41,648 nt of DNA from Candidatus Woesearchaeota archaeon (GTDB taxonomy: Archaea; Nanobdellota; Nanobdellia; Woesearchaeales; GW2011-AR15). Both the position numbers and the translations under genes were made by a program. Below the pieces are notes generated by a model, which worked only from the letters and a program-made list of their open reading frames with translations, made no database searches and was not told the origin of the DNA. Of this stretch, positions 777-41,317 are shown in pieces (positions within the stretch are counted from its first letter, which is position 1; each line of letters opens with the position of its first letter). The stretch spans positions 1 to 41,648 of the forward strand of contig WJJD01000016.1 in the NCBI GenBank assembly GCA_014729915.1, read 5' to 3'.

Positions 777-1079
777 ATGGCAAAAAGACAAGGCGGATTC
801 AGGAGGAAATCAAGGCATAAATTAAAAAAGCATTATAAAAAAAAAGGAAAATTGTCAATAACAAAGTTTCTTCAGGAATTTAAACAAGGAGAAAAGGTTG
901 TATTGAATGCAGAACCTTCTTATCAAAAAGCAATGTATTTTCCCAGGTTTCACGGAAAAATTGGCACAATACATTCAAAAAGAGGAAAATGTTATGAAGT
1001 AATAATCAGAGATAATAAAAAAAAAAAAATTGTCATTGTCCATCCGGTCCACCTTAAAAAAGCAGGAGTGAAAAAATGA
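777..1079 (+). CDS. rpl21e: 50S ribosomal protein L21e
   Basis: The 100-aa basic protein (RRKSRHKL..., FPRFHGKIGTI, VHPVHLKK) matches the L21e family. It sits in the conserved L21e-RpoF-DUF655 archaeal gene order. Confidence 0.92.
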   Translation: MAKRQGGFRRKSRHKLKKHYKKKGKLSITKFLQEFKQGEKVVLNAEPSYQKAMYFPRFHGKIGTIHSKRGKCYEVIIRDNKKKKIVIVHPVHLKKAGVKK

Positions 1080-1432
1080 ATCCTCAGATCATCTCAGAAG
1101 AAGCTGTCAGTATTTATAATATGTCCAAAGAATTAAAAAAAATTAAAAAAAGGGATGGAGAACTGAATATCAGGACAAAAAAACTAGAGGAATATCTGAA
1201 CAGTTTTTTAAATCTTAAGCAAGAACAGGCAGAAGAACTTGAAAAAGAGCTCGTAAAGCTAGATGTTCCAAGATTAAAAGAGATGTATATTAAAAAGATA
1301 ATCGATCTGATGCCTTCAACTTCAGATGAATTAAAACTTATTTTAAATGCATATCCGATTACAGTTAGTAAAAAAAATCTGGATAAGATTGTTTCTGTTT
1401 TAAAAAAATATATTCCAAAAGAGACAAACTAA
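1076..1432 (+). CDS. rpoF: DNA-directed RNA polymerase subunit F (Rpo4)
   Basis: The 118-aa protein has an ATGA start/stop overlap with rpl21e. Its pattern (L..YL..F..LK.EQAEEL...L ... KIIDLMP...DELKLIL) and position are typical of archaeal RpoF. Confidence 0.75.
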   Translation: MNPQIISEEAVSIYNMSKELKKIKKRDGELNIRTKKLEEYLNSFLNLKQEQAEELEKELVKLDVPRLKEMYIKKIIDLMPSTSDELKLILNAYPITVSKKNLDKIVSVLKKYIPKETN

Positions 1433-1475
1433 CACAAATTTTAAATACAACTCATTCTTATTATATTATTAGTGG

Positions 1476-2042
1476 GTGAAAATGAGAAAAGAAAACAGGG
1501 AGGAATATGTGATTGTTCTGGATTATCTTCCGCACGGATATCCTTTTGATGATACACCAGGCTATAAGAAAACTCCTATAATACAATGTCTTGGAGAGAT
1601 GCATCTCACACTATTAGAAGCAGTTCCAAAAAAAAAAGCAATTATAAAAACACGGGACAAGATTTATATTGGAGAGGGTAAACGGGAGAGGGTTCATCAT
1701 ATAAACGGAAGACTAAGTCCTGATAAGCTCACAACTTCTGCAAAAGCAGAACTTGATTATGTGTTGACAAAATTTGTTACAGAAAAAGAAGAAAAATATG
1801 TAGAATTCTTTAATAAAGCTCCACCGTTAACAACAAGGATGCATACACTGGAATTACTCCCTGGACTTGGAAAGAAACATATGTGGGAAATAATTGAACA
1901 GAGAAGAGATGAAAAATTTAAATCATTTGAAGATATAAAAAAAAGGGTAAAACTACTTCCCGATCCAAAAAAAATAGTTGTTAAGAGAATAAAATCAGAA
2001 CTATTGGGTAAAGAAAAATATAATTTGTTTGTCAGAAAATAG
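1476..2042 (+). CDS. DUF655/COG1491-type OB-fold plus helix-hairpin-helix nucleic-acid-binding protein
   Basis: VLDYLPHGYP...LLEAVPK...LELLPGLGKKHMWEII is typical of the family that follows rpoF in archaea. The ATG at 1482, preceded by GGTGA, may be the true start. Confidence 0.75.
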   Translation: MKMRKENREEYVIVLDYLPHGYPFDDTPGYKKTPIIQCLGEMHLTLLEAVPKKKAIIKTRDKIYIGEGKRERVHHINGRLSPDKLTTSAKAELDYVLTKFVTEKEEKYVEFFNKAPPLTTRMHTLELLPGLGKKHMWEIIEQRRDEKFKSFEDIKKRVKLLPDPKKIVVKRIKSELLGKEKYNLFVRK

Positions 2043-2056
2043 TATTAGGGGATAAT

Positions 2057-3241
2057 GTGAAATATAAAATTTTCTTATTTTCAATATTATTTATATTTGT
2101 GTGTTCTTTTTCTGTAAATGCGGTAATCATTGGAGTTTCCCCGAGTATCTTAAAATTCAATAAGATGATAAAGCAGGGGTATGCAGAAAAAACAATCACT
2201 GTAAGTACATCTTCTCGAGAGATTTTGAGTGGTCATTTTGAAGTTGAAGGAGATGTGTCTGATTGGATTTTTTTCAGACCAAATTCAACACAGTTTAATG
2301 TATCGTCAGATAATCCTTATCGTGTTTCATTGATAATCAGACCCGGAAGAGATACAAAAAATGGAAACTATTCTGGTATTGTTCGCATCTTAACCGACAA
2401 TGTTGCTAAAGTAGAAAAAGGTGCAGGAAGTTCAGTCATTGCAGCTGTTGCATTAAGAGTTTATATTGAGGTAATAGGAGAAGAAATAATAGAATGTAGA
2501 GCAGGAGCTTTTTCAGTTCCTAATATAGAAGTAGGTCTTCCTATTCAAATAATGTCAAATGTTTACAATGATGGTAATGTAAGATTAAAGCCGGAATTTA
2601 AAATAGAAATCTATGATAAGTTCAGAGAAAATATTTTACTAAAAAAATCACTCATTGGACAGGAAATTTTACCTACTTTATATGATCGAATTTTTCTTGA
2701 GATTGATAATGAACTTTCACCAGGACAATACTTTATTAATGTGCTTATCAAAGAGTGTGCAGTTTCAAGACTATTAACCTTTGATGTTCTTGAAAAAGGA
2801 GGGATTGTTGATGAAGGAAATTTTGTGGGAATAAGAACAAAAAAGATAAGTTATGTTGGTGAACCAACACCAATACTTCCTGTTTTTAAGAATGTAGGAC
2901 CAAGAAGAGTATTTGCGAAATTTAAAGGGGAGATAAGGTCTCTTGAGACAGACAGAATAATTGAAGTTATTGAATCAGATGAGATTGTACTTGAATCTGG
3001 CAAACAAGTTGAATTTCCTTTATTTTTTGTTCCAAAAGATACCGGAACATATCAGATATCAGGCAGGGTTATCTATAATAATAAAATCACTATTGAAGAA
3101 AAAAGTAAAACAATAAAGGCTGTTAAATCAAAACAAAAATTCAAGATGAATATTTTTTTTTTAATGTTGATATATCTTATTATTGGATTGACAATACTTA
3201 TTCTCATCGGAAAGATCAAAAAAGAGAAAAGGAAATACTAA
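2057..3241 (+). CDS. secreted/membrane-anchored surface protein (Ig-like/CARDB-like repeats inferred)
   Basis: GTG start. It has an N-terminal signal peptide (FSILFIFVCSFSVNA) and a C-terminal TM helix plus KKEKRKY tail. The beta-rich repeats suggest the fold but do not establish it. Confidence 0.6.
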   Translation: MKYKIFLFSILFIFVCSFSVNAVIIGVSPSILKFNKMIKQGYAEKTITVSTSSREILSGHFEVEGDVSDWIFFRPNSTQFNVSSDNPYRVSLIIRPGRDTKNGNYSGIVRILTDNVAKVEKGAGSSVIAAVALRVYIEVIGEEIIECRAGAFSVPNIEVGLPIQIMSNVYNDGNVRLKPEFKIEIYDKFRENILLKKSLIGQEILPTLYDRIFLEIDNELSPGQYFINVLIKECAVSRLLTFDVLEKGGIVDEGNFVGIRTKKISYVGEPTPILPVFKNVGPRRVFAKFKGEIRSLETDRIIEVIESDEIVLESGKQVEFPLFFVPKDTGTYQISGRVIYNNKITIEEKSKTIKAVKSKQKFKMNIFFLMLIYLIIGLTILILIGKIKKEKRKY

Positions 3242-3294
3242 AAAGTTTTCTTAACACAAAAAATATTTTAACACTTGATGAGTTTTTTTTTTTG

Positions 3295-3337
3295 ACAAAT
3301 CTGCTCTGAACCTGATCACAAAATCTATACTATTTAG
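3295..3337 (+). repeat. ~43-bp intergenic repeat element, copy B
   Basis: ACAAATCTGCTCTGAACCTGATCACAAAATCTATACTATTTAG. Confidence 0.75.
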
Positions 3338-3346
3338 ATTAATCCC

Positions 3347-3769
3347 TTATTTTTTTCCCTTTTCAAGATCATATACAGGTTTTTCTATCTCCTGCAGCCA
3401 CATCAGACCGATTCTCATCATGTCCTTGTTGAACTTGTTTGAGATTTTGTATTTTTTCGTATATAGATCGTAATTGACCATTCCCATGGATTTCATCGGA
3501 GTAAGAATCCTGTCATAGAACTGCCTTTTATTGTATGAGATCTTGACTTTTTTTCCCTTGAACGGAGCTTCGTCTAAAACACTGATAAGCTCTCCTTCAT
3601 GAAGTTTTGTAGCAAACAGACTCATCTCTGTTTTTCCGATTTCCCGGCCGTTCTCTTTCATGTATCTTATCAATAATTTTGCTACAATTTTCTGCTGTTT
3701 GGTCGAGAAAATAATCTCAAAAATATCTTCCGGCAGGTTATACCTGTCATACAAAATTACCATAAGCAC
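3347..3769 (-). CDS. hypothetical 140-aa protein, possible winged-helix DNA binder
   Basis: Intact ORF with a TATA-like TTTTTATAAT upstream, bracketed by an inverted 18-19 nt repeat (3314..3332 and 3820..3837). No family recognised. Confidence 0.5.
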   Translation of the reverse strand: MLMVILYDRYNLPEDIFEIIFSTKQQKIVAKLLIRYMKENGREIGKTEMSLFATKLHEGELISVLDEAPFKGKKVKISYNKRQFYDRILTPMKSMGMVNYDLYTKKYKISNKFNKDMMRIGLMWLQEIEKPVYDLEKGKK

Positions 3770-3812
3770 CCCCTAATATATATAGAAGTATATTACTATT
3801 ATAAAAATTTTT

Positions 3813-3850
3813 CCTATTTTAGTATAGATTTTGTATCAAAATTTGCTAAA
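3813..3850 (-). repeat. intergenic repeat element, partial inverted copy C
   Basis: The reverse complement contains GATACAAAATCTATACTA, matching the core GATCACAAAATCTATACTA of copy B. Confidence 0.65.
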
Positions 3851-4025
3851 AACAAATTTTGATTGGACTATCCGGCCGTAATGAAAAGAGTTTTCGGGGA
3901 GGGGGTGTGGGGTGTATCTATAGGAAAAAGTAAAAGAGAAGAAAGGAGTGATATTGTATTACTTCAGATAGGTATATATATAAGAAATCATTCATTAACT
4001 TAAATGTAGTGATAGGGAGTAAAAA

Positions 4026-6167
4026 GTGACAGACATAATAGGGACAGATATATTTGTATCAAACAGAGGTATAGGTTTTAATCTTAACAATAAAGGAGAG
4101 CTTTCTCTTGAAAGTATCCTAAGGCCTCCAAGTGCAGGAGGGCTGGCAGCAGCATTGGTGGGGTCCGGACTTGAAATTGAAGTTCCGAACAAAGCTTATA
4201 GTTCTGCTGAAAAACTAATTGAGTATTTGTCGAAATATATAGATGAAAACGGGCACAAAGCTCCAATCTGGATAACTGGAGCAATGAAGTCCGGAGATCT
4301 TAAGGTCGCTTCAGGGGAGTATGATAATTTATTTGAAAAAGCTGTTGAAATACGATTTTCACTGGAAGAAATTAATAATTCAGCGGATATTTTTTTTGTG
4401 AAAGGGGATAATGATGATTCGACTTCTTTTTATCTGATTTATAACGGAAAACTTATCCGTATGAAAAAAGTAGAATTTGAAAAAAAATCCTATAATCAAT
4501 TTTACCAAAACCCTGTAAATTCTTTTTTCTGGCCATTAGCACATCTTAAAGGAGAAAACACATTTGAAATAGTGAAAGGGTTTCCAAGACCAAAGTTAAG
4601 AAAAGATGATTATTCCTTATACACTAATACTGATAATATTTTTGCTCATGTAATTCTTAATGAGATAAAAAGGATTAGAAGTGGCAAAAAGGATACCGAA
4701 TATAGTATTAATCTGAGAATAGATGATTACCAATTAATGAATGTAGGCTGCCAGGTGCAGAAATTATTTTCTGATGAAGAAGATTCCAGCGAAGCATTTG
4801 GGGAACAGAGTTTTAGAAATACCGGGTTTTTTAATCATATTCCTGTTCCAGATGTGCAAGCAATTAAAAAGTTATTAGAAAGAGAAGAAACAGATCAAAA
4901 GATCTTTTTAAGTGACAAAGACAGGAATTCATTTGCATATAAACCTGCAAAAAAGATTGATGAGCCATTGAAAGCAGTTATGGCTGACACATTTTACAGG
5001 ATGCTCACCGGACACTCAATGCTTGGATTTCACACAAAAGAGTATGTTGAGAATTTTGTTGATTTAGCACAATATTTTTTTGGAAGTGAAAACATAAATG
5101 CTGACTTTTCAGAAGATGGTTTCTCGTGCATGCTTTCTTATAATCTTAACAGAAATGAAGACAGTGTCCTAATTGGTACATTTCCTATCGGTATAGATCT
5201 TGATTGGGCAGGACCAGAGAGATTCACAGAAGTACCTGAATTAGATTATAAAATGAAAAGGGTTGTAAGAAGAAAAAATAAATGGAGGCACATCCTGGAC
5301 AAACTACTTTGCAGGATTATTCCAAATAAAAAACTCAAACCACACATTGATGTTTTTAAAGCAGAGGAACATGAAAAGTTAGATATTGGAAACTTAGTTA
5401 AAGAAACAAATAAAAATGGTGCAGTTTTTTCAGCAATGGGAAGAAGTGATTATACAAAGAATTTTCACCTGGCAGTTGAGGGTTTTGGAGAACTTGTTAA
5501 AGAGCAGCTTGAAAAATATAAAGATCCAAGAGAAAACGGAATGCCTCTTCATCTCCTGCTTTTGACAGCTCCTTCAAGAATGAATGTTGAAGCATATAGG
5601 AATAATTTTGAAATTCTATTAAGAAGAGTTGAAGAAATAAATAAACTATTTGAAAACCCGGAGTATGAATTTGGTAGGGGTAACAAAAAGTATATAACAC
5701 CAACAGGAGAAGCACCGATAATATTTGCTCCTGAGAGAGTAACTGATAAAAACAAAGCTGCAGTTTTCTTAAATACAATAAGTGTTTATCCTCCGGATAG
5801 AGATGGACAGAATATAATGCCTATGGAGGAATGGACTGTTGCAGACGATACATTTGAAAAATTCCCTTATACAATTATCGGAAGAGATATCGGACTTGCA
5901 CAGACATTGATCCAGGATTATCAGGACCAAAAAATATTTCTAAACAAAGATGCTAATAGAGAAGTTCCTGAAGGTGTTGAGCTAGTTGATACCCGAAGTA
6001 AAGACAGGGTTGTTCAAATGAAGAAGGCAATGGAAAATTCCATTGGAAAATATGCTTCCCCCGAATTAATGAAATATGTGCATCAATATAGAAATGTTCA
6101 GAACTGGACTGATGCAATTATGAAGACAATCAGATCAGGAGAATATCAACATCCTTACAGAAACTGA
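4026..6167 (+). CDS. GT20-family glycosyltransferase, trehalose-6-phosphate-synthase-like (divergent, with insertions)
   Basis: OtsA-like motifs occur in order: VSNRG...SAGGLAAAL, FYQNPVNSFFWPLAHL, IDDYQLMNVG, GFFNHIPVP, LGFHTKEYVENF, GRSDYTKN, LLLLTAPSRMNVEAY, PPDRDGQNIMPMEE. GTG start preceded by GGGAG. Confidence 0.75.
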   Translation: MTDIIGTDIFVSNRGIGFNLNNKGELSLESILRPPSAGGLAAALVGSGLEIEVPNKAYSSAEKLIEYLSKYIDENGHKAPIWITGAMKSGDLKVASGEYDNLFEKAVEIRFSLEEINNSADIFFVKGDNDDSTSFYLIYNGKLIRMKKVEFEKKSYNQFYQNPVNSFFWPLAHLKGENTFEIVKGFPRPKLRKDDYSLYTNTDNIFAHVILNEIKRIRSGKKDTEYSINLRIDDYQLMNVGCQVQKLFSDEEDSSEAFGEQSFRNTGFFNHIPVPDVQAIKKLLEREETDQKIFLSDKDRNSFAYKPAKKIDEPLKAVMADTFYRMLTGHSMLGFHTKEYVENFVDLAQYFFGSENINADFSEDGFSCMLSYNLNRNEDSVLIGTFPIGIDLDWAGPERFTEVPELDYKMKRVVRRKNKWRHILDKLLCRIIPNKKLKPHIDVFKAEEHEKLDIGNLVKETNKNGAVFSAMGRSDYTKNFHLAVEGFGELVKEQLEKYKDPRENGMPLHLLLLTAPSRMNVEAYRNNFEILLRRVEEINKLFENPEYEFGRGNKKYITPTGEAPIIFAPERVTDKNKAAVFLNTISVYPPDRDGQNIMPMEEWTVADDTFEKFPYTIIGRDIGLAQTLIQDYQDQKIFLNKDANREVPEGVELVDTRSKDRVVQMKKAMENSIGKYASPELMKYVHQYRNVQNWTDAIMKTIRSGEYQHPYRN

Positions 6168-12074: not shown

Positions 12075-12165
12075 TGAGCCTGGAGGGATTTGAACCCCCG
12101 CCAGCCGGTCCGAAGCCGACCGCCCTTTCTGGTATGCAAATATATCCAGACTAGGCTACAGGCCC
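12075..12165 (-). tRNA. tRNA-Arg (anticodon TCG) with a ~16-nt insertion in the D-loop
   Basis: Hand-folded from the reverse complement. The acceptor GGGCCTG/CAGGCTC has discriminator A; the anticodon arm is GTCGG-CTTCGGA-CCGGC; the T arm is GGGGG-TTCAAAT-CCCTC. The D stem GCCT/GGGC encloses 27 nt instead of about 10. An oligo-T follows the 3' end and CCA is not encoded. Confidence 0.8.
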
Positions 12166-15487: not shown

Positions 15488-17185
15488 CTACATCTCATTT
15501 AAGGCTTCTATTCCAAGAATATTCAGTCCCTGTTTTATAACTATACTCACTGCATAAATCAGTATTATTCTGGATTTAGTCAGCTCTTTTTTTTCTGACA
15601 GTATCCTGTGTATATGATAATAATTATTAAACGACTGGCATAAATCAAGTAGATATCTTGAGATAATGCTTGGTTTATATTCTTTTGTACTTTTTTTTAC
15701 AGTTTCAGGAAAATTCGAAAGATATTTGATTAACTCTTTTTCTTGTTTTTTTATAAGAAGTTTAGGATTAAATTCCTTGCTTAGATTCTTTTTATACTTT
15801 TTTAAGATACTTTTAATTCTTGCATAAGTATATTGTATATATGGACCTGTTTCTCCTTCAAAAGATATAGATTCCTTTTGGTTGTAAGTAAAATCTTTCA
15901 TCGGATCATATTTTAAAATATAAAATTTGATTGCAGACATTCCTATCTGTTCAGCTCTTTTTTCAATTTCTTTTTCTGAAAGATTTTTATTTCTTTTTTT
16001 TACTTCTATTTTTGCAAGTTTGTGCATCTCATCAGCAAGATTGTCAGCATCAACAACTTTTCCCTGTCTTGATTTCATTTTTCCTTCGGGAAGATATATC
16101 ATGCCGTAAGCTAAATGATAACAGTCATCTGCAAAAGGATATTTTAGTTTTTTAAATATTTCAAAAAGCACCTTGAAATGATAGATCTGCTCATTTCCGA
16201 CAATATATATCATTTTATCCATCTTATAATCTTTATAGCGAAGATCTGCAAGGACAAGATCCTGGGTGATATATATTGATGTGCCGTCTGCCCTTAATAC
16301 TACCTTTTTACCTAGATTCTTTTCTTCAAGATCAATTATGATATTTCCTTCTTCATCCTTTTCAAAAAGCCCATTTTTCAGGCCATCAAGAACCAATTTT
16401 TTTCCTTTTTCATAATGTTTTGATTCCGGATATGCCTTATCCATCTCAACACCGAACCTCTCATAAGTTTCTTTAAACCCTTCTATTGCCCATGAATTCA
16501 TCTTTTTCCATAATTCCCTTGTTTTTTTATCATTATTTTCCCATTTTACAAGCATATCTCTTATCTCTTGTTCAAGTTCAGGGTTTTGTTTTACTCTTTT
16601 TGAAAACAGCACATAAAAATCTCCGACAAAATGATCAGGTTTTTTATCAGGTTCTTTATTATCTGCGTATTTTTTATAGGCAAGCATTGATTTGCAGATA
16701 TGAACACCACGATCATTGATAATATCAACCCTTACAGTATCATAACCAGAAAACTCATATAGGTTCACAAGAGCATTTCCAAGAACCATGTTTCTTACAT
16801 GGCCAAGGTGAAGCGGCTTGTTTGTGTTTGGACCGGGTGATTCTATCATCACAGTTGTATCTTTTTCTTGTCCTCTTCCGTAGTTTTCTTTTTTTTTAAG
16901 CACATCTTTGAGTATATTTTCAGCAAGTTTTACCGAAGAAACAAAGAAATTCAGATATGGTCCTATTATTTTGATCTCAGAAAAATAATCTCCTACTTGT
17001 ATGTTATCCATAAGTACCTTTGCAGTCTCATTGGGTGATTTTTTACACTCTTTGGCAAGCTTAAAGCAGGGAAGGGCGTAGTCTCCTAAATTTGGATCGG
17101 GTGGGATTTCGATATCATCTGCAGATATATTATTATTAATATGCTTATTTACAGAAGAAACAATCATTTCTTTTAGGTCAATCAT
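15488..17185 (-). CDS. argS: arginine--tRNA ligase
   Basis: 565 aa. It has a class I HIGH-type motif (PNTNKPLHLGHVRN) and an ArgRS anticodon-binding C-terminus ending LNEM. Confidence 0.92.
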   Translation of the reverse strand: MIDLKEMIVSSVNKHINNNISADDIEIPPDPNLGDYALPCFKLAKECKKSPNETAKVLMDNIQVGDYFSEIKIIGPYLNFFVSSVKLAENILKDVLKKKENYGRGQEKDTTVMIESPGPNTNKPLHLGHVRNMVLGNALVNLYEFSGYDTVRVDIINDRGVHICKSMLAYKKYADNKEPDKKPDHFVGDFYVLFSKRVKQNPELEQEIRDMLVKWENNDKKTRELWKKMNSWAIEGFKETYERFGVEMDKAYPESKHYEKGKKLVLDGLKNGLFEKDEEGNIIIDLEEKNLGKKVVLRADGTSIYITQDLVLADLRYKDYKMDKMIYIVGNEQIYHFKVLFEIFKKLKYPFADDCYHLAYGMIYLPEGKMKSRQGKVVDADNLADEMHKLAKIEVKKRNKNLSEKEIEKRAEQIGMSAIKFYILKYDPMKDFTYNQKESISFEGETGPYIQYTYARIKSILKKYKKNLSKEFNPKLLIKKQEKELIKYLSNFPETVKKSTKEYKPSIISRYLLDLCQSFNNYYHIHRILSEKKELTKSRIILIYAVSIVIKQGLNILGIEALNEM

Positions 17186-17936: not shown

Positions 17937-18368
17937 ATGAAAAAAATCAAACTAAAAAAAAAAGAAAAAAAATTTCTAAAAGAATATATTAGTAAAGGAA
18001 AAAAGAAAGCAAGATCAATTGCAAGAGCAAATGTACTGCTCTTACTTGATCAAAGATGGGACAACAAAAGTATTACTGCAAGTACAGGACTACATAGGCA
18101 AAGCATATGGAGAATTAAAAAAAGATATCTTAAAGAAGGAATAAAATCAGCAATAACTGAGAAACCAAGACCTGGTCAACCAAAGAAATATTCAAAAAAA
18201 GATAAAGCCACACTAATAGCAACAGCATGCAGTGATCCTCCCAAAGGTAGAAAAAGATGGACAGTTAGGTTGTTAGCAAAGGAAATGCGAGAAAAAGAAG
18301 GGATGAAAACTATGAATCGTGAAACAGTACGTTTAATTCTAAAAAAAACAAAACAAAACCTTGGTTGA
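17937..18368 (+). CDS. IS630-family transposase, N-terminal HTH part
   Basis: The HTH/winged-helix region ends in an A-rich slippery run (AAAAAAAACAAAACAAAACC). Confidence 0.7.
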   Translation: MKKIKLKKKEKKFLKEYISKGKKKARSIARANVLLLLDQRWDNKSITASTGLHRQSIWRIKKRYLKEGIKSAITEKPRPGQPKKYSKKDKATLIATACSDPPKGRKRWTVRLLAKEMREKEGMKTMNRETVRLILKKTKQNLG

Positions 18369-18862
18369 AAAAAAGATGGTGTATACCAAAATTAACACCC
18401 GAATTTAAGAGAAGAATGTATGATATTCTCGATCTTTATGAAACACCATACGATCCAAAAAACCCCGTAATTGTAATTGATGAAAAACCTATTCAATTAA
18501 TAGATCATATAAGAAAACCAATTCCTACAAAACAGGGAAAGATTGCTAAACAAGATTATGAATATAAAAGAAATGGTACAGCAAATATTTTTATTGGTGT
18601 TGAATTCAAAGCAGGAAAAAGAATTACAAAAGATACAAAGATAAGAACAAAAAAACATTATGCGCGATTTGCCAAAAGAGATTACACCTTAGAAGTGCAT
18701 GTTGACCACTTAATGCAAATTACTAGTGGAAGTATAGTATTTTATGATCCTGAAACACAACACAAGAGAGGAAGAAGAGATAAAATGAACAGAAGTGAGT
18801 TAATAGATCAGGCAGGGAAACTTGGGATGGATGAACACAACTTATTACCTTTCAAAGAATGA
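18365..18862 (+). pseudogene. IS630-family transposase, DDE part, truncated
   Basis: The (L)KKRWCIP...VIVIDEKP...YEYKRNGTANIF core is present. The C-terminal third of the catalytic domain is replaced by unrelated sequence. Confidence 0.65.
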
Positions 18863-36223: not shown

Positions 36224-36308
36224 AGCTTTTTTATAATTTGTTAAGAATATTAAAATCTTTCGTTAGTAAGTAAATAGAAAGTCAGATACGGAAAATGGAG
36301 TTTTTTTT

Positions 36309-36470
36309 GTTAACATATTAAGTTGAAAAATTTTCGTTGAATGTCCAAGATGAAATTTTTTTTGACATTTTACATTCATCTTTTGCTGATTAATAGACAA
36401 TAAGAATAAGAAACATTCCGAAAATGGCAAAAAAAACCAGCATTCAACGGAAAGTCTATTCAATGTTAAC
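36309..36470. repeat. long-range inverted repeat (GTTAACAT...CGTTGAATG / CATTCAACG...ATGTTAAC)
   Basis: The arms at 36309..36343 and 36441..36470 share perfect 8-nt outer and 9-nt inner complementary blocks. Confidence 0.8.
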
Positions 36471-36496
36471 TAAAAAAATTTTCCATTGTACACATA

Positions 36497-36785
36497 AAAA
36501 ATCACAAGGTGATTTTTGGGCTTGAGAAATTTTGGATTTCCCAAATGTCGGAAATCCAAAGATTTCTGAGCACAGTCAAAAATCGCTTGGGCGATTTTCG
36601 ATGTGTTGGAAATGTTTTACATTTCTAATCATCGTCAGGAACCTTAATAAATCTGTCTGTCGGTTCCTGAGATGTCGGCAATCGGAGATTGCTGAGCATC
36701 ATCAGAAAAACGAAGTTTTTCCGAGATGTCGGAAACCCAAAGGTTTCTGAGCACAGTCAAAAATCGCTTGGGCGATTTTCGATGT
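36497..36785. repeat. tandem array of ~10 alternating stem-loops with conserved stem bases and linkers (candidate structured RNA)
   Basis: Hairpins: B0 36497..36517, A0 36526..36540, A1 36548..36569, B1 36576..36601, A2 36606..36628, B2 36635..36670, A3 36675..36695, B3 36702..36724, A4 36729..36750, B4 36757..36782. Compensatory pair changes occur between units. Confidence 0.85.
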
Positions 36786-36810
36786 TTTCCTCTGATTTTC
36801 TATTTATGTT

Positions 36811-36840
36811 ATTAAATTTCTTCTGATGAAGAAATTTAAT
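36811..36840. terminator. perfect 13-bp hairpin downstream of the 36896..37360 gene
   Basis: ATTAAATTTCTTC-TGAT-GAAGAAATTTAAT. On the minus strand, T-rich runs separate it from the gene's stop codon. Confidence 0.5.
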
Positions 36841-36895
36841 TAGAGTGGGGTGTTTGGCTCCTATAAAAATCTGAAAAAGTCAAGAAAAAACTTTT

Positions 36896-38250: not shown

Positions 38251-38355
38251 TTATCTTTTGATCTTTCTTTTTCTTTTCTGTTTTTTCATTCGTTTTCTTT
38301 GCCATTTCCATCTCATCTGGCCTTTTTTTTTCCATCTTCTTGAACTTCTTTTCAT
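38251..38355 (-). CDS. rpl41e: ribosomal protein L41e-like (34 aa, extremely basic)
   Basis: The hand translation is MKRSSRRWKKKGQMRWKWQRKRMKKQKRKRKIKR. The RxWKKKG.MRWKW..KR pattern fits my memory of archaeal L41e. AGGTGA lies about 10 nt upstream of the ATG. The gene is below the ORF-track cut-off and antisense to spurious ORF 38258..38473. Confidence 0.6.
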   Translation of the reverse strand: MKRSSRRWKKKGQMRWKWQRKRMKKQKRKRKIKR

Positions 38356-38385: not shown

Positions 38386-38516
38386 TGGCTCGTCCGGGAC
38401 TTTCATCAATCTTTTGAATTGTTTTGAACCCGGGTCACAGCCTTTCTTCTTTAGGTTCGAAAGGGCTGAATGATTGATTGTCCAAACATATGTTTTCCGG
38501 ACTACACCAACGAGCC
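38386..38516 (-). tRNA. tRNA-Glu (anticodon TTC) interrupted by three insertions (D-loop, anticodon loop, T-loop)
   Basis: Hand-folded from the reverse complement. The acceptor is GGCTCGT/ACGAGCC plus A, with the typical Glu D-arm start TGGTGTAGTCCGG. The anticodon stem CAGCC/GGCTG flanks CTTTCGA plus 14 extra nt. The T stem CCGGG/CCCGG encloses 30 nt starting TTCAAA. Total length is 131 nt against about 75 expected. Confidence 0.75.
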
Positions 38517-38541: not shown

Positions 38542-38554
38542 GTTTTTAAAAGTT
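38542..38554 (-). promoter_or_regulatory. TATA-box-like element for tRNA-Glu
   Basis: AACTTTTAAAAAC on the minus strand lies 26-38 nt upstream of the tRNA 5' end. Confidence 0.45.
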
Positions 38555-39251: not shown

Positions 39252-39365
39252 GAAACCATTCATTAGCAAATTCAGACTCTTCTATGTAATGATGCACAAA
39301 ATACATCATGTTTACACCAAAAAAAAGAGTATCAAATATTTTTCCAAATTATATATTGTTCTATC

Positions 39366-39770
39366 TCATAATAAGAAGTACAATATAACCGGCAATATCA
39401 AGCATCCCATCGCATGATTCCTCCCAATATTCTTCAAAGGAGCGATCAGGCCGATCGCAGTTGATGTAAATAAAACCAAGATCCCTATTGGTCCATTTAA
39501 AAATAAACTCATTGCAAAGATAAAAATAATTATTGAAACAACCAGCATCTTATAATTCACTTTAACTATTAATTTACTAAATATCTTTGAAAAAACAAAG
39601 TTAAAAAAACTGAAATACTACCAGCAACCAAAAATACAAAAACCAAAATTAAAAAAGAATTAAAATCAATCTCCATTAGTTTACTGATAACAACAATAGT
39701 CCCGTCCTTTGCTTTTCCCAAAGTATTGCTTTCATTTGACAAAAGAGCATTATTTAAATGAAGATCACAA
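39366..39770 (-). pseudogene. frameshifted paralogue of membrane-protein gene 40922..41317
   Basis: Upstream of track ORF 39366..39560, another frame reads LSNESNTLGKAKDGTIVVISKL...AGSISVFLTLFF, matching the paralogue. The two frames join only if one T is added to the T6 run (A6 at 39590..39595 on the + strand). There is no ATG start. Confidence 0.6.
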
Positions 39771-39790: not shown

Positions 39791-40639
39791 TTATTTTACC
39801 AAATTTATTAACATCATTGTTGCTTGTTCGTATTGTGGAGGAGGATTTCTCCTTATTTCATCTATTGAACAATAGATTATTCCTTCTTGAGTTGCATGTC
39901 TATCTGTAAAAAAAAGTTGTACATTTTCTCTAGGAATCTCTGCATTGCGACCTAAACGCTCCAAATCTTTCAGATTAAAATCTCTGAGATAAAATAATAA
40001 TCTATCTTCTTTATTCGGAACCCCATCTATTATAGGGACTCTTGCATATTCCCATGCCGAGCTTTCTCCATGAGCATAAAAAGATTCTATTATCATCTGC
40101 CCTCCTGGTAAAAGCGCATCATAATATCTTTTCAGTAAATTTGCTCTTTGTAAATCTGCTTCCTCAGAGCTAACTCCTGGATAAAGCACGTGCATAAATG
40201 ATCCCATCCATATTATCGCGTCATATTTCTGTGGTGCTTCTTTAGGGATTCTATCTTTCATGTCATGCACATACACGTTGAAACCGTATTGTTTAGCAAT
40301 ATCTAACATTTTCGCACTTAAATCAACTGCATGCACTTCAACATTTTCTAAGTCATCTCCTCCATATTCTCTTAGAATACTATATTCTACTGTTCCAGGA
40401 CCGCAACCCAAAAGTAATACACGAATAGGTTTACCTAAAAAAGATTCCTGCAACATTTTTAGTACCCTATCTGTAAGTTCATTTGACATATCAGCTTCAT
40501 TTCTATTCCCTTCATCATATGAATCTGATACAATTCCAAAATTTATTGCAAGCCTTTTATATTCTTCTTTTGAAATTTCTGATTCACGCAATGCTTTTGT
40601 ATAATCATCTCTTATTTTCCATTTTATTTCTGATGGCAT
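39791..40639 (-). CDS. class I SAM-dependent methyltransferase
   Basis: Motif I is VLLLGCGPGT. The acidic post-I residue is in VHAVDLS, and motif IV-like is IIWMGSFMH. Confidence 0.75.
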   Translation of the reverse strand: MPSEIKWKIRDDYTKALRESEISKEEYKRLAINFGIVSDSYDEGNRNEADMSNELTDRVLKMLQESFLGKPIRVLLLGCGPGTVEYSILREYGGDDLENVEVHAVDLSAKMLDIAKQYGFNVYVHDMKDRIPKEAPQKYDAIIWMGSFMHVLYPGVSSEEADLQRANLLKRYYDALLPGGQMIIESFYAHGESSAWEYARVPIIDGVPNKEDRLLFYLRDFNLKDLERLGRNAEIPRENVQLFFTDRHATQEGIIYCSIDEIRRNPPPQYEQATMMLINLVK

Positions 40640-40921
40640 ATTATTATTAAATGCAGAACCTATTTAAAAATTTAATTGATTGTTATTATTTGCTAAGGAC
40701 GATATGATGTCTTTACTAAAGTCTATCAACAAACTAATTTTATCCTGTTAATTATGAAAAATTGTATCCCAATCTAAAATTATTTTCGTTATTAAAGAAG
40801 AAAGTAAATGACAATTGGCTAAATAAGACATCCCATAACATGCGAGCCTTTAACCGCTCCCTTCGATCGCTAAAGGTTTGACCCAAACACGTGGCACTTT
40901 GCGCTTTCGCTTCAGTCCCAC

Positions 40922-41317
40922 TCATAATAAAAAGTATAATATGACTGGTAGTATCAAACACCCCATCGAGTGGTTTCTGCCTATACCTTTCAAAGGAGCA
41001 ATTAAACCGATAGAAGTAGAAGTTATCAAGACAATTAGTCCTATCCAGCCGTTCAAAAACAAGCTCATTAATAAAATAAAAACAATGATTGATATGACAA
41101 GAAGTTTATAATTTACTTTGACGATCAATCTTGAAAAAATCTTAGAAAAATACAATGTCAAAAATACAGCAACCGAACCTGCTATCAAAAAGACTACAAT
41201 AAGCAAATAAAATTTTAATTTATCTATCTCAAGCAATTTAGATATTACAACAATCGTCCCGTTCTTTGCCTTTCCCAAAGTATTGCTTTCATTTGACAAA
41301 ATATGTAATTTATACAA
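40922..41317 (-). CDS. small 3-TM membrane protein (unknown family), intact paralogue
   Basis: 131-aa ORF with a TTG start. Its C-terminus GLIAPLKGIGRNHSMGCLILPVILYFLL is nearly identical to that of 39366..39560. Confidence 0.55.
   Translation of the reverse strand: MYKLHILSNESNTLGKAKNGTIVVISKLLEIDKLKFYLLIVVFLIAGSVAVFLTLYFSKIFSRLIVKVNYKLLVISIIVFILLMSLFLNGWIGLIVLITSTSIGLIAPLKGIGRNHSMGCLILPVILYFLL

Follow-up and report, generated by a model that had tools for sequence, protein, structure and literature searches.

A tRNA-Glu(UUC) gene of a Woesearchaeota-like archaeon with three predicted bulge-helix-bulge introns in its D-loop, anticodon loop and T-loop

In contig WJJD01000016.1, a stretch of 41,648 nt that was analysed as a whole and is referred to below as the window, a tRNA-Glu locus on the minus strand raises the question of whether a tRNA gene interrupted in three of its loops is a working gene with removable introns or a damaged copy. 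An initial annotation, made from the letters alone, had described this locus as a 131-nt tRNA-Glu(TTC) gene with perfect stems and with inserts in the D-loop, the anticodon loop and the T-loop. Our analysis of the sequence, its folding and its relatives leads us to the reading, to which we assign a probability of roughly 0.9, that the locus is a functional tRNA-Glu(UUC) gene from a DPANN (Woesearchaeota-like) archaeon, in which colinear exons of 20, 20, 21 and 14 nt are separated by three predicted bulge-helix-bulge (BHB) introns at sites 19/20, 37/38 and 59/60.

In order to establish the identity of the gene, we examined the minus strand from 38516 to 38386, which runs GGCTCGT..ACGAGCCA. The acceptor stem is Watson-Crick paired at 7/7 positions (GGCTCGT/ACGAGCC) and is followed by the discriminator A73, whilst the anticodon stem (CAGCC/GGCTG) and the T stem (CCGGG/CCCGG) are each paired at 5/5 positions, the former closing a loop, CTTTCG..A, that gives the anticodon TTC, and the latter enclosing TTCAAA..T. 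The archaeal tRNA-Glu D-arm signature GTGTAGTCCGG...ATCAT is also present. The stems are therefore as perfect as first described, and the coordinates originally proposed for the D-loop and T-loop inserts proved exact, as did the palindrome AAACATATGTTT within the former and the CAAT..ATTG hairpin within the latter; for the 14-nt insert near 37/38 the two versions differ by a single nucleotide (38443..38456 originally, 38444..38457 here), reflecting an A/A ambiguity at the junction that leaves the mature sequence the same. Deletion of the three inserts in silico leaves 75 nt, which ARAGORN calls as tRNA-Glu(ttc), with the predicted exon-exon junctions GTAGTCCGG^TCAATCATTC, CCCTTTCG^AGGCTGTG and GGTTCAAA^TCCCGGAC (here and below, ^ marks a splice site). 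The product is identified as tRNA-Glu(UUC) by its 7-nt loop with the anticodon UUC, by its cloverleaf fold, by the archaeal D-arm GUGUAGUCCGG..AUCAU and by orthology to other tRNA-Glu genes. Exons and inserts also differ in composition, the exons having a G+C content of 58.7 % and the introns one of 26-29 %, against 31.9 % for the contig. A split or permuted tRNA gene was ruled out, as the four exons are colinear within 131 nt.

The archaeal BHB consists of a 4-bp helix with two flanking 3-nt bulges, and in its canonical form the helix includes the first two bases of the anticodon (PMC4090602). With the cut placed after the second bulge nucleotide, the expected site reads exon ..HHHH b1 b2 ^ intron b3 ... 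H'H'H'H' b1' b2' ^ exon, where H and b denote helix and bulge positions. At 3/3 sites we found a 4-bp helix and two 3-nt bulges on opposite strands in the correct register (motifs in Table 1), bearing out the BHB-like junctions that the initial annotation had anticipated, and the identification of the inserts as archaeal BHB introns is supported by this geometry. The strict hBHBh' form was found at none of them: the D-loop motif is without an outer helix, the anticodon-loop motif is without an inner one, and the T-loop motif, though it possesses both, shows an offset of 1 nt. Such relaxed motifs are usual for non-canonical introns. When the introns were shuffled, full H/H' pairing (intron positions -6..-3) arose with p = 0.0047 for the D-loop, 0.061 for the anticodon loop and 0.020 for the T-loop, corresponding to a joint p of ~6e-6 across the three sites. 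Folding of the entire precursor gives -42.2 kcal/mol (z = -3.7), and in the T-arm the BHB is itself the minimum-free-energy (MFE) fold.

To compare the gene with its relatives, we scanned species-representative genomes with a pattern allowing 1-31 nt in the D-loop, and recovered eight tRNA-Glu(UUC) genes, six of them in metagenome-assembled genomes (MAGs) labelled Woesearchaeota. Five of the eight are intron-less, and a D-loop or anticodon-loop intron was found in none of these eight genes. Two intron-less Woesearchaeota orthologues, L015 and L016 (L numbers denote the loci fetched in this work), read GTCCGGTCAATCAT and TTCAAAT, matching the predicted spliced junctions exactly; that is, the spliced D-loop junction GTCCGG^TCAATCAT and the spliced T-loop junction TTCAAA^T of the window are identical to uninterrupted sequence in these two genes. 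Acceptor-stem differences between the window and orthologues are compensatory, as in GGCTCGT/ACGAGCC in the window versus GCCCCGT/ACGGGGC in L016. Three further loci (L010, L011 and L014) carry a 59/60 intron, which ends ..TGAAAG^T in L010 and L014, both Woesearchaeota MAG loci, and ..TGGAAG^T in L011, representing a change from U-A to U-G.

These orthologues also bear on the exact position of the splice sites. It is conceivable that the gene is real but that at least one site is shifted, in the D-loop by one or two nucleotides in the 3' direction to 20/20a or 20a/21 (the latter as in the tRNA-Arg gene of the window and in another class of relatives) or in the anticodon loop to 38/39. Room for this is left by the A/A ambiguity of the anticodon-loop junction and by an A that stands at the 5' junction in the D-loop, relatives do use a second D-loop site with the helix CCGG/CCGG, and the D-loop MFE fold favours a 7-bp helix without the 5' bulge. 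In disagreement with this, however, a 4/4 helix with 3-nt bulges results in the window from the 19/20 choice alone, and this choice alone reproduces the D-loop TCA of the intron-less L015 and L016, whilst cleavage at 37/38 or at 38/39 would yield the same product. As such, we consider a shifted site unlikely.

A scan of metagenomes, in which a D-loop insert of 10-40 nt was required, returned 56 loci. Among the 52 unique tRNA-Glu genes, a 37/38 intron is present in 14, with the 4/4 helix kept in 11 of these, and a 59/60 intron is present in 23, with the 4/4 helix kept in 18. All three introns occur together in 8/52, namely the window and seven metagenomic loci (L022, L023, L031, L032, L036, L049 and L065). 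Splicing in silico produced a 75-nt tRNA-Glu for 50 of the 52; the other two (L048 and L070) were not spliced owing to a D-intron parsing error, ATCAT also occurring within the intron. The D-loop introns fall into two classes, one at 19/20 with the helix GUCC/GGAY, to which the window belongs, and one at 20a/21 with the helix CCGG/CCGG. In the anticodon loop, position 34 covaries with its partner in the intron, with U34-A in UUC genes versus C34-G in CUC genes. For the D-loop we aligned the 19/20 motifs of 25 distinct genes, replacing the variable loops by a linker, and found 200/200 cells to be paired and 4/4 inner-helix pairs to be changed on both sides (56 cells). This alignment has a covariation score of 0.747 versus 0.185 for shuffles (0/500) and ≤ 0.22 for slid-partner controls, in a set chosen by its GGRYAA intron end, a criterion that takes in the exon/intron helix and leaves the inner helix as the only unbiased test. 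Homologous introns thus keep their structure with compensatory changes.

The gene for ribosomal protein L41e follows tRNA-Glu in seven sequences (the window, L010, L011, L013, L014, L020 and L071). The intron content of this one locus is none in L013, a T-loop intron only in L010, L011 and L014, a D-loop intron only in L020 and L071, and all three in the window. As intron content varies in this way with the exons left intact, introns have been gained or lost at a single locus; the exon 1 sequence GTGTAGTCCGG is common to all relatives. As the linkage to L41e is kept in six relatives, co-transcription of the two genes is suggested as a possibility. The position beside GINS51 was not kept in relatives found via GINS51 homologues (41-45 % identity), and all that this synteny search brought up was an intron-less tRNA-Glu(CUC) 8 kb from GINS51 in L001.

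The same comparison bears on whether the locus is a decaying pseudogene, in which junk inserts have accumulated in a dead tRNA-Glu copy whilst an intact, intron-less gene does the work elsewhere. A second copy could lie beyond the single 41.6-kb contig, and the gene is not called by standard finders. Its exons, however, are without decay, having not only perfect stems but also the conserved U8, A14, G18 G19, U33, U54 U55 C56 and A58, and where its acceptor stem departs from that of orthologues the departures compensate one another. Moreover, each insert keeps the BHB register, the succession of tRNA-Glu and L41e is conserved, and dozens of relatives maintain introns, with covariation, at these same sites, making a pseudogene very improbable. 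That the inserts are instead retained as expansion segments in the mature RNA, or removed otherwise, e.g. by self-splicing, is hardly credible, as 14-23 nt is far below the size of group I or group II introns, the G18/G19-U55/C56 elbow would be lost if the inserts of the D-loop and T-loop were retained, BHB geometry is present at 3/3 inserts, and inserts are present or absent at one locus with the exon sequence unchanged.

Beyond the selection of the covariation set described above, several observations weigh against a functional gene with three BHB introns. The BHB conformer lies 0.9 kcal/mol above an MFE alternative register in the D-loop and 3.3 kcal/mol above one in the anticodon loop. These same two motifs, of the HBh' and hBH types, would both need a tolerant enzyme, as the initial annotation had recognized; because they are relaxed, the splicing enzyme is expected to have broad specificity. 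No gene for the splicing endonuclease EndA was found by tblastn with M. jannaschii EndA (a query checked against PDB 1A79) on the 41.6-kb contig or in the 72 fetched loci. The copy number of tRNA-Glu(UUC) was judged within these 41.6 kb of the genome, and splicing itself is something that we infer from the sequence.

Table 1. Location and structure of the tRNA-Glu(UUC) gene, its predicted introns and BHB motifs, and associated features of the window (^, splice site)
Feature	Coordinates	Strand	Length	Description
tRNA-Glu(UUC), whole gene	38386..38516	-	131 nt	Four exons and three introns; CCA not encoded
Exon 1	38497..38516	-	20 nt	Acceptor 5' strand, U8 G9, D-stem 5' strand, D-loop A14..G19
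Intron 1 (predicted)	38478..38496	-	19 nt	AAAACATATGTTTGGACAA; D-loop, G19/U20 (site 19/20)
Exon 2	38458..38477	-	20 nt	D-loop 20-21, D-stem 3' strand, anticodon-stem 5' strand, loop C32..G37, anticodon UUC
Intron 2 (predicted)	38444..38457	-	14 nt	AACCTAAAGAAGAA; anticodon loop, canonical 37/38 site
Exon 3	38423..38443	-	21 nt	A38, anticodon-stem 3' strand, variable region UGAC, T-stem 5' strand, T-loop U54..A59
Intron 3 (predicted)	38400..38422	-	23 nt	ACAATTCAAAAGATTGATGAAAG; T-loop, site 59/60
Exon 4	38386..38399	-	14 nt	U60, T-stem 3' strand, acceptor 3' strand, discriminator A73
BHB motif, intron 1				D-loop 19/20; helix GUCC(15-17a)/GGAC; bulges GG^A, AA^U; inner helix AAAC/GUUU; outer helix none; HBh' type
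BHB motif, intron 2				Anticodon loop 37/38; helix CUUU(32-35)/GAAG; bulges CG^A, AA^A; inner helix none; outer helix = anticodon stem; hBH / bulge-helix-loop type
BHB motif, intron 3				T-loop 59/60; helix UUCA(54-57)/UGAA; bulges AA^A, AG^U; inner helix CAAU/AUUG, offset by one A; outer helix = T stem
TATA-box-like element	38543..38551	-		TTTTAAAAA; 27-35 nt upstream of G1; presumed promoter
Ribosomal protein L41e gene	38251..38355	-	34 aa	30 nt downstream of tRNA-Glu, same strand; marks the orthologous locus
tRNA-Arg(UCG)	12075..12165	-	91 nt	Contains one D-loop intron
tRNA-Arg(UCG) intron	12127..12143	-	17 nt	D-loop, site 20a/21; helix CUGG/CCAG

If the gene is indeed functional and spliced at these three sites, its expression might proceed as follows. 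Transcription would start from the gene's own TATA-like promoter; ATTTAAAA elements lie upstream of the orthologues L011 and L013 at about the same distance as the box in the window, weak evidence in so AT-rich a genome. The L41e gene downstream is preceded by AGGTGA. In the precursor, each intron would pair with the exon immediately upstream of its 5' splice site to give the helix of 4 bp and both 3-nt bulges, and for this local exon-intron pairing we have shown agreement of sequence, folding and comparison. By analogy with established archaeal tRNA splicing, EndA would then cut both bulges of each motif, making six cuts in total, and the exons would be joined by an RtcB-type ligase. RNase P, RNase Z and the CCA-adding enzyme would finish the ends as in established archaeal tRNA processing, with CCA being added post-transcriptionally because the gene does not encode it. 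Since G15-C17a with the bulged G18 G19, as well as U54-A57, would be tied up in the motifs, the elbow between D-loop and T-loop would be blocked until both of the introns concerned are out; the enzyme would therefore be expected to recognize the local BHB rather than the mature tRNA body.

The tRNA-Glu gene is not alone in being interrupted. A second tRNA with a D-loop insert had been reported as its neighbour, and whilst this tRNA-Arg(UCG) does exist on the same contig, it is located 26 kb from tRNA-Glu rather than next to it. Unspliced, it is returned by ARAGORN as 'tRNA-???' and finds no match in Rfam; after splicing in silico it is called as a 74-nt tRNA-Arg(tcg). An ArgRS gene (15488..17185) lies 3.3 kb from it. 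No further tRNAs were detected in the 41.6-kb window by a search for GC-rich islands of exon size and a custom scan for acceptor and T-arm. Among the relatives, a tRNA-Ile(UAU) gene of 149-162 nt is interrupted at 37/38 and 59/60 as well as in its D-loop, the very layout of the window's tRNA-Glu, in L020 (181..329) and L071, where it lies just upstream of tRNA-Glu, as well as in L063 (4998..5159); all three copies splice in silico to tRNA-Ile. With tRNA-Arg on the contig and three-site tRNA-Ile(UAU) genes in two syntenic relatives, the lineage clearly tolerates such introns, as had been suggested at the outset. Additionally, 59/60 introns were seen in other isoacceptors of L033, L045, L062 and L067. 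In L020, a complete archaeal 16S-23S rRNA operon (1005..5706), the 16S of which could place the lineage, adjoins the locus orthologous to tRNA-Glu/L41e, and a 109-nt tRNA in its rRNA spacer (2523..2631) is probably also intron-bearing.

The expectation that standard finders would overlook the gene also held. The unspliced 131 nt gave no ARAGORN call with default settings, with -i or with lowered thresholds, the last producing noise calls elsewhere only, and no Rfam match either at gathering thresholds or at E ≤ 5. Intron-less orthologues, by comparison, were found both by Rfam (RF00005, 58-60 bits) and by ARAGORN (tRNA-Glu), whilst every intron-bearing orthologue tested was missed by both. For tRNAscan-SE 2.0, the training set behind its BHB models came from Crenarchaeota, Euryarchaeota and Thaumarchaeota (PMC8450103). 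According to a 2026 preprint, 96/208 complete Nanobdellota genomes had tRNAs for all 20 amino acids, the sets being incomplete with tRNAscan-SE. Incomplete tRNA sets are routinely reported for DPANN/Nanobdellota, and neither ARAGORN nor the Rfam tRNA model sees genes of the kind described here. With the junction signatures GTCCGG^..GGAYAA^, CTYTCR^..^A and TTCRAA^..TGAAAG^T they can be recovered.

As to the organism, the contig is archaeal chromosomal DNA, encoding L41e, L21e, RpoF, Alba, Rrp4/41/42, proteasome alpha, Pop5 (RNase P), ArgRS, ProRS and GINS51. Homologues of GINS51 are labelled Woesearchaeota or Nanoarchaeota, the best having 45 % identity, and Woesearchaeota are placed by the NCBI taxonomy within the kingdom Nanobdellati (DPANN). 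Pfam scans of 40 open reading frames (ORFs) of the window revealed no tRNA_int_endo domain. A database search seeded with the catalytic unit of the ARMAN-2 EndA gave 47 matches, which resemble N-terminally truncated epsilon2-type enzymes; none of the 47 is labelled Woesearchaeota, their origin being unknown or Micrarchaeota. Relaxed motifs can be cleaved by EndA of the (alpha-beta)2 and epsilon2 types and by alpha4 enzymes with an L3 loop. EndA of the alpha4 type has classically been thought to depend on strict BHB motifs. Alpha4 EndAs with an L3 loop have, however, been reported in DPANN together with a marked rise in disrupted tRNA genes (PMC5829648). We put forward, tentatively and at clearly less than even odds, that the D-loop, 37/38 and 59/60 layout may be lineage-wide and vertically maintained in Woesearchaeota-like DPANN (in tRNA-Glu UUC and CUC and in tRNA-Ile UAU), and that it may be processed by a homotetrameric alpha4 EndA with specificity broadened via the L3 loop. 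If this were true, the lineage-wide three-site layout would be a main reason why the tRNA sets of such genomes look incomplete.

Earlier publications already cover archaeal tRNAs with several introns, the site 59/60 and the increased disruption of tRNA genes in DPANN. The initial annotation was correct in pointing to Thermoproteales, the main group in which multi-intron tRNAs with up to three introns are established, as in Pyrobaculum and Thermofilum (Sugahara et al. 2007/2008, via PMC4033280, PMC3218864 and PMC8450103). The two cases share up to three BHB introns per gene, canonical together with non-canonical sites, relaxed motifs, removal by EndA and difficulty for finders. They differ in that Thermoproteales are hyperthermophilic Crenarchaeota with an (alpha-beta)2 EndA bearing an L1 (CSL) loop and have many scattered intron sites, whereas the window is AT-rich and DPANN/Woesearchaeota-like, its lineage using three recurrent hot spots (D-loop 19/20 or 20a/21, 37/38 and 59/60). 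Within DPANN, ARMAN-2 (Micrarchaeota) has a pre-tRNA-Cys(GCA) with a 13-nt intron at 59/60 and a tRNA-Pro(GGG) with two T-loop introns; its broad-specificity EndA cleaves the 59/60 intron in vitro, and three introns are given as the known maximum (PMC3239211). The 59/60 T-loop site and a relaxed motif are common to ARMAN-2 and the window, both DPANN, but the ARMAN-2 enzyme is an epsilon2 three-unit EndA with an L2 loop, and it is in the window that one gene combines D-loop, anticodon-loop and T-loop introns.

Kaneta et al. 2018 sampled a single Woesearchaeota and a single Pacearchaeota genome, and reported raised tRNA disruption in DPANN lineages, these included, with some tRNAs still undetected (PMC5829648). 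The two genomes belong to the same superphylum as the window and probably to the same phylum-level group; that study gave per-genome proportions, whereas the present one describes a specific gene with its intron positions, conservation, covariation and the three-site pattern shared by tRNA-Glu and tRNA-Ile. In Nanoarchaeum equitans, of a related DPANN lineage, tRNA-Glu is likewise discontinuous (Randau et al. 2005, via PMC4090602 and the 2026 Nanobdellota preprint), and its pieces are joined via a BHB-like motif cut by EndA; this tRNA is split, its halves being separate genes joined in trans, in contrast to the window, where all exons are colinear in one 131-nt gene. Our literature search found no paper on the window's gene or on the three-site pattern. 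The gene represents a well-supported DPANN case connecting intron-rich tRNAs with splicing endonucleases of broad specificity, and the locus a clean example of intron gain or loss at one orthologous locus, whilst the general picture of archaeal tRNA splicing is unchanged.

Finally, a number of other features were seen in the window. A G-rich island (3865..3916; ..CGGGGAGGGGGTGTGGGGTG..) occupies part of a 256-nt non-coding gap upstream of a 713-aa glycosyltransferase-20-like ORF and matched no RNA family. A non-coding stretch of ~670 nt (36224..36895) consists of near-perfect hairpins, with fold z-scores of -9.3 on the plus and -10.1 on the minus strand. It contains a 71-nt direct repeat (36537-36607 and 36718-36788, 93 % identical) and, three times, the arrangement GATGTCGG-hairpin-CTGAGCA, in which the hairpins show the compensatory changes GAAATC/GATTTC, GCAATC/GATTGC and GAAACC/GGTTTC. 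This stretch has no Rfam match and could be a cluster of non-coding RNAs, a repeated element or a set of protein-binding sites. Two diverged copies (71-85 % nt identity) of a small membrane-protein gene region, at 39365..39744 and 40921..41301, flank an S-adenosylmethionine (SAM)-methyltransferase gene (39791..40639); the second copy is a single 131-aa ORF, and the first is split into ORFs of 57 and 64 aa. Two remnants of mobile elements were also noted: at 17937..18862, an ORF with HTH_32/HTH_29/HTH_23 followed by an overlapping 165-aa ORF, an IS630-like two-ORF transposase layout, and at the contig end (41542..41628), a short ORF ending ..GIGYLPPEEFE, a typical C-terminus of a transposase/integrase (rve).

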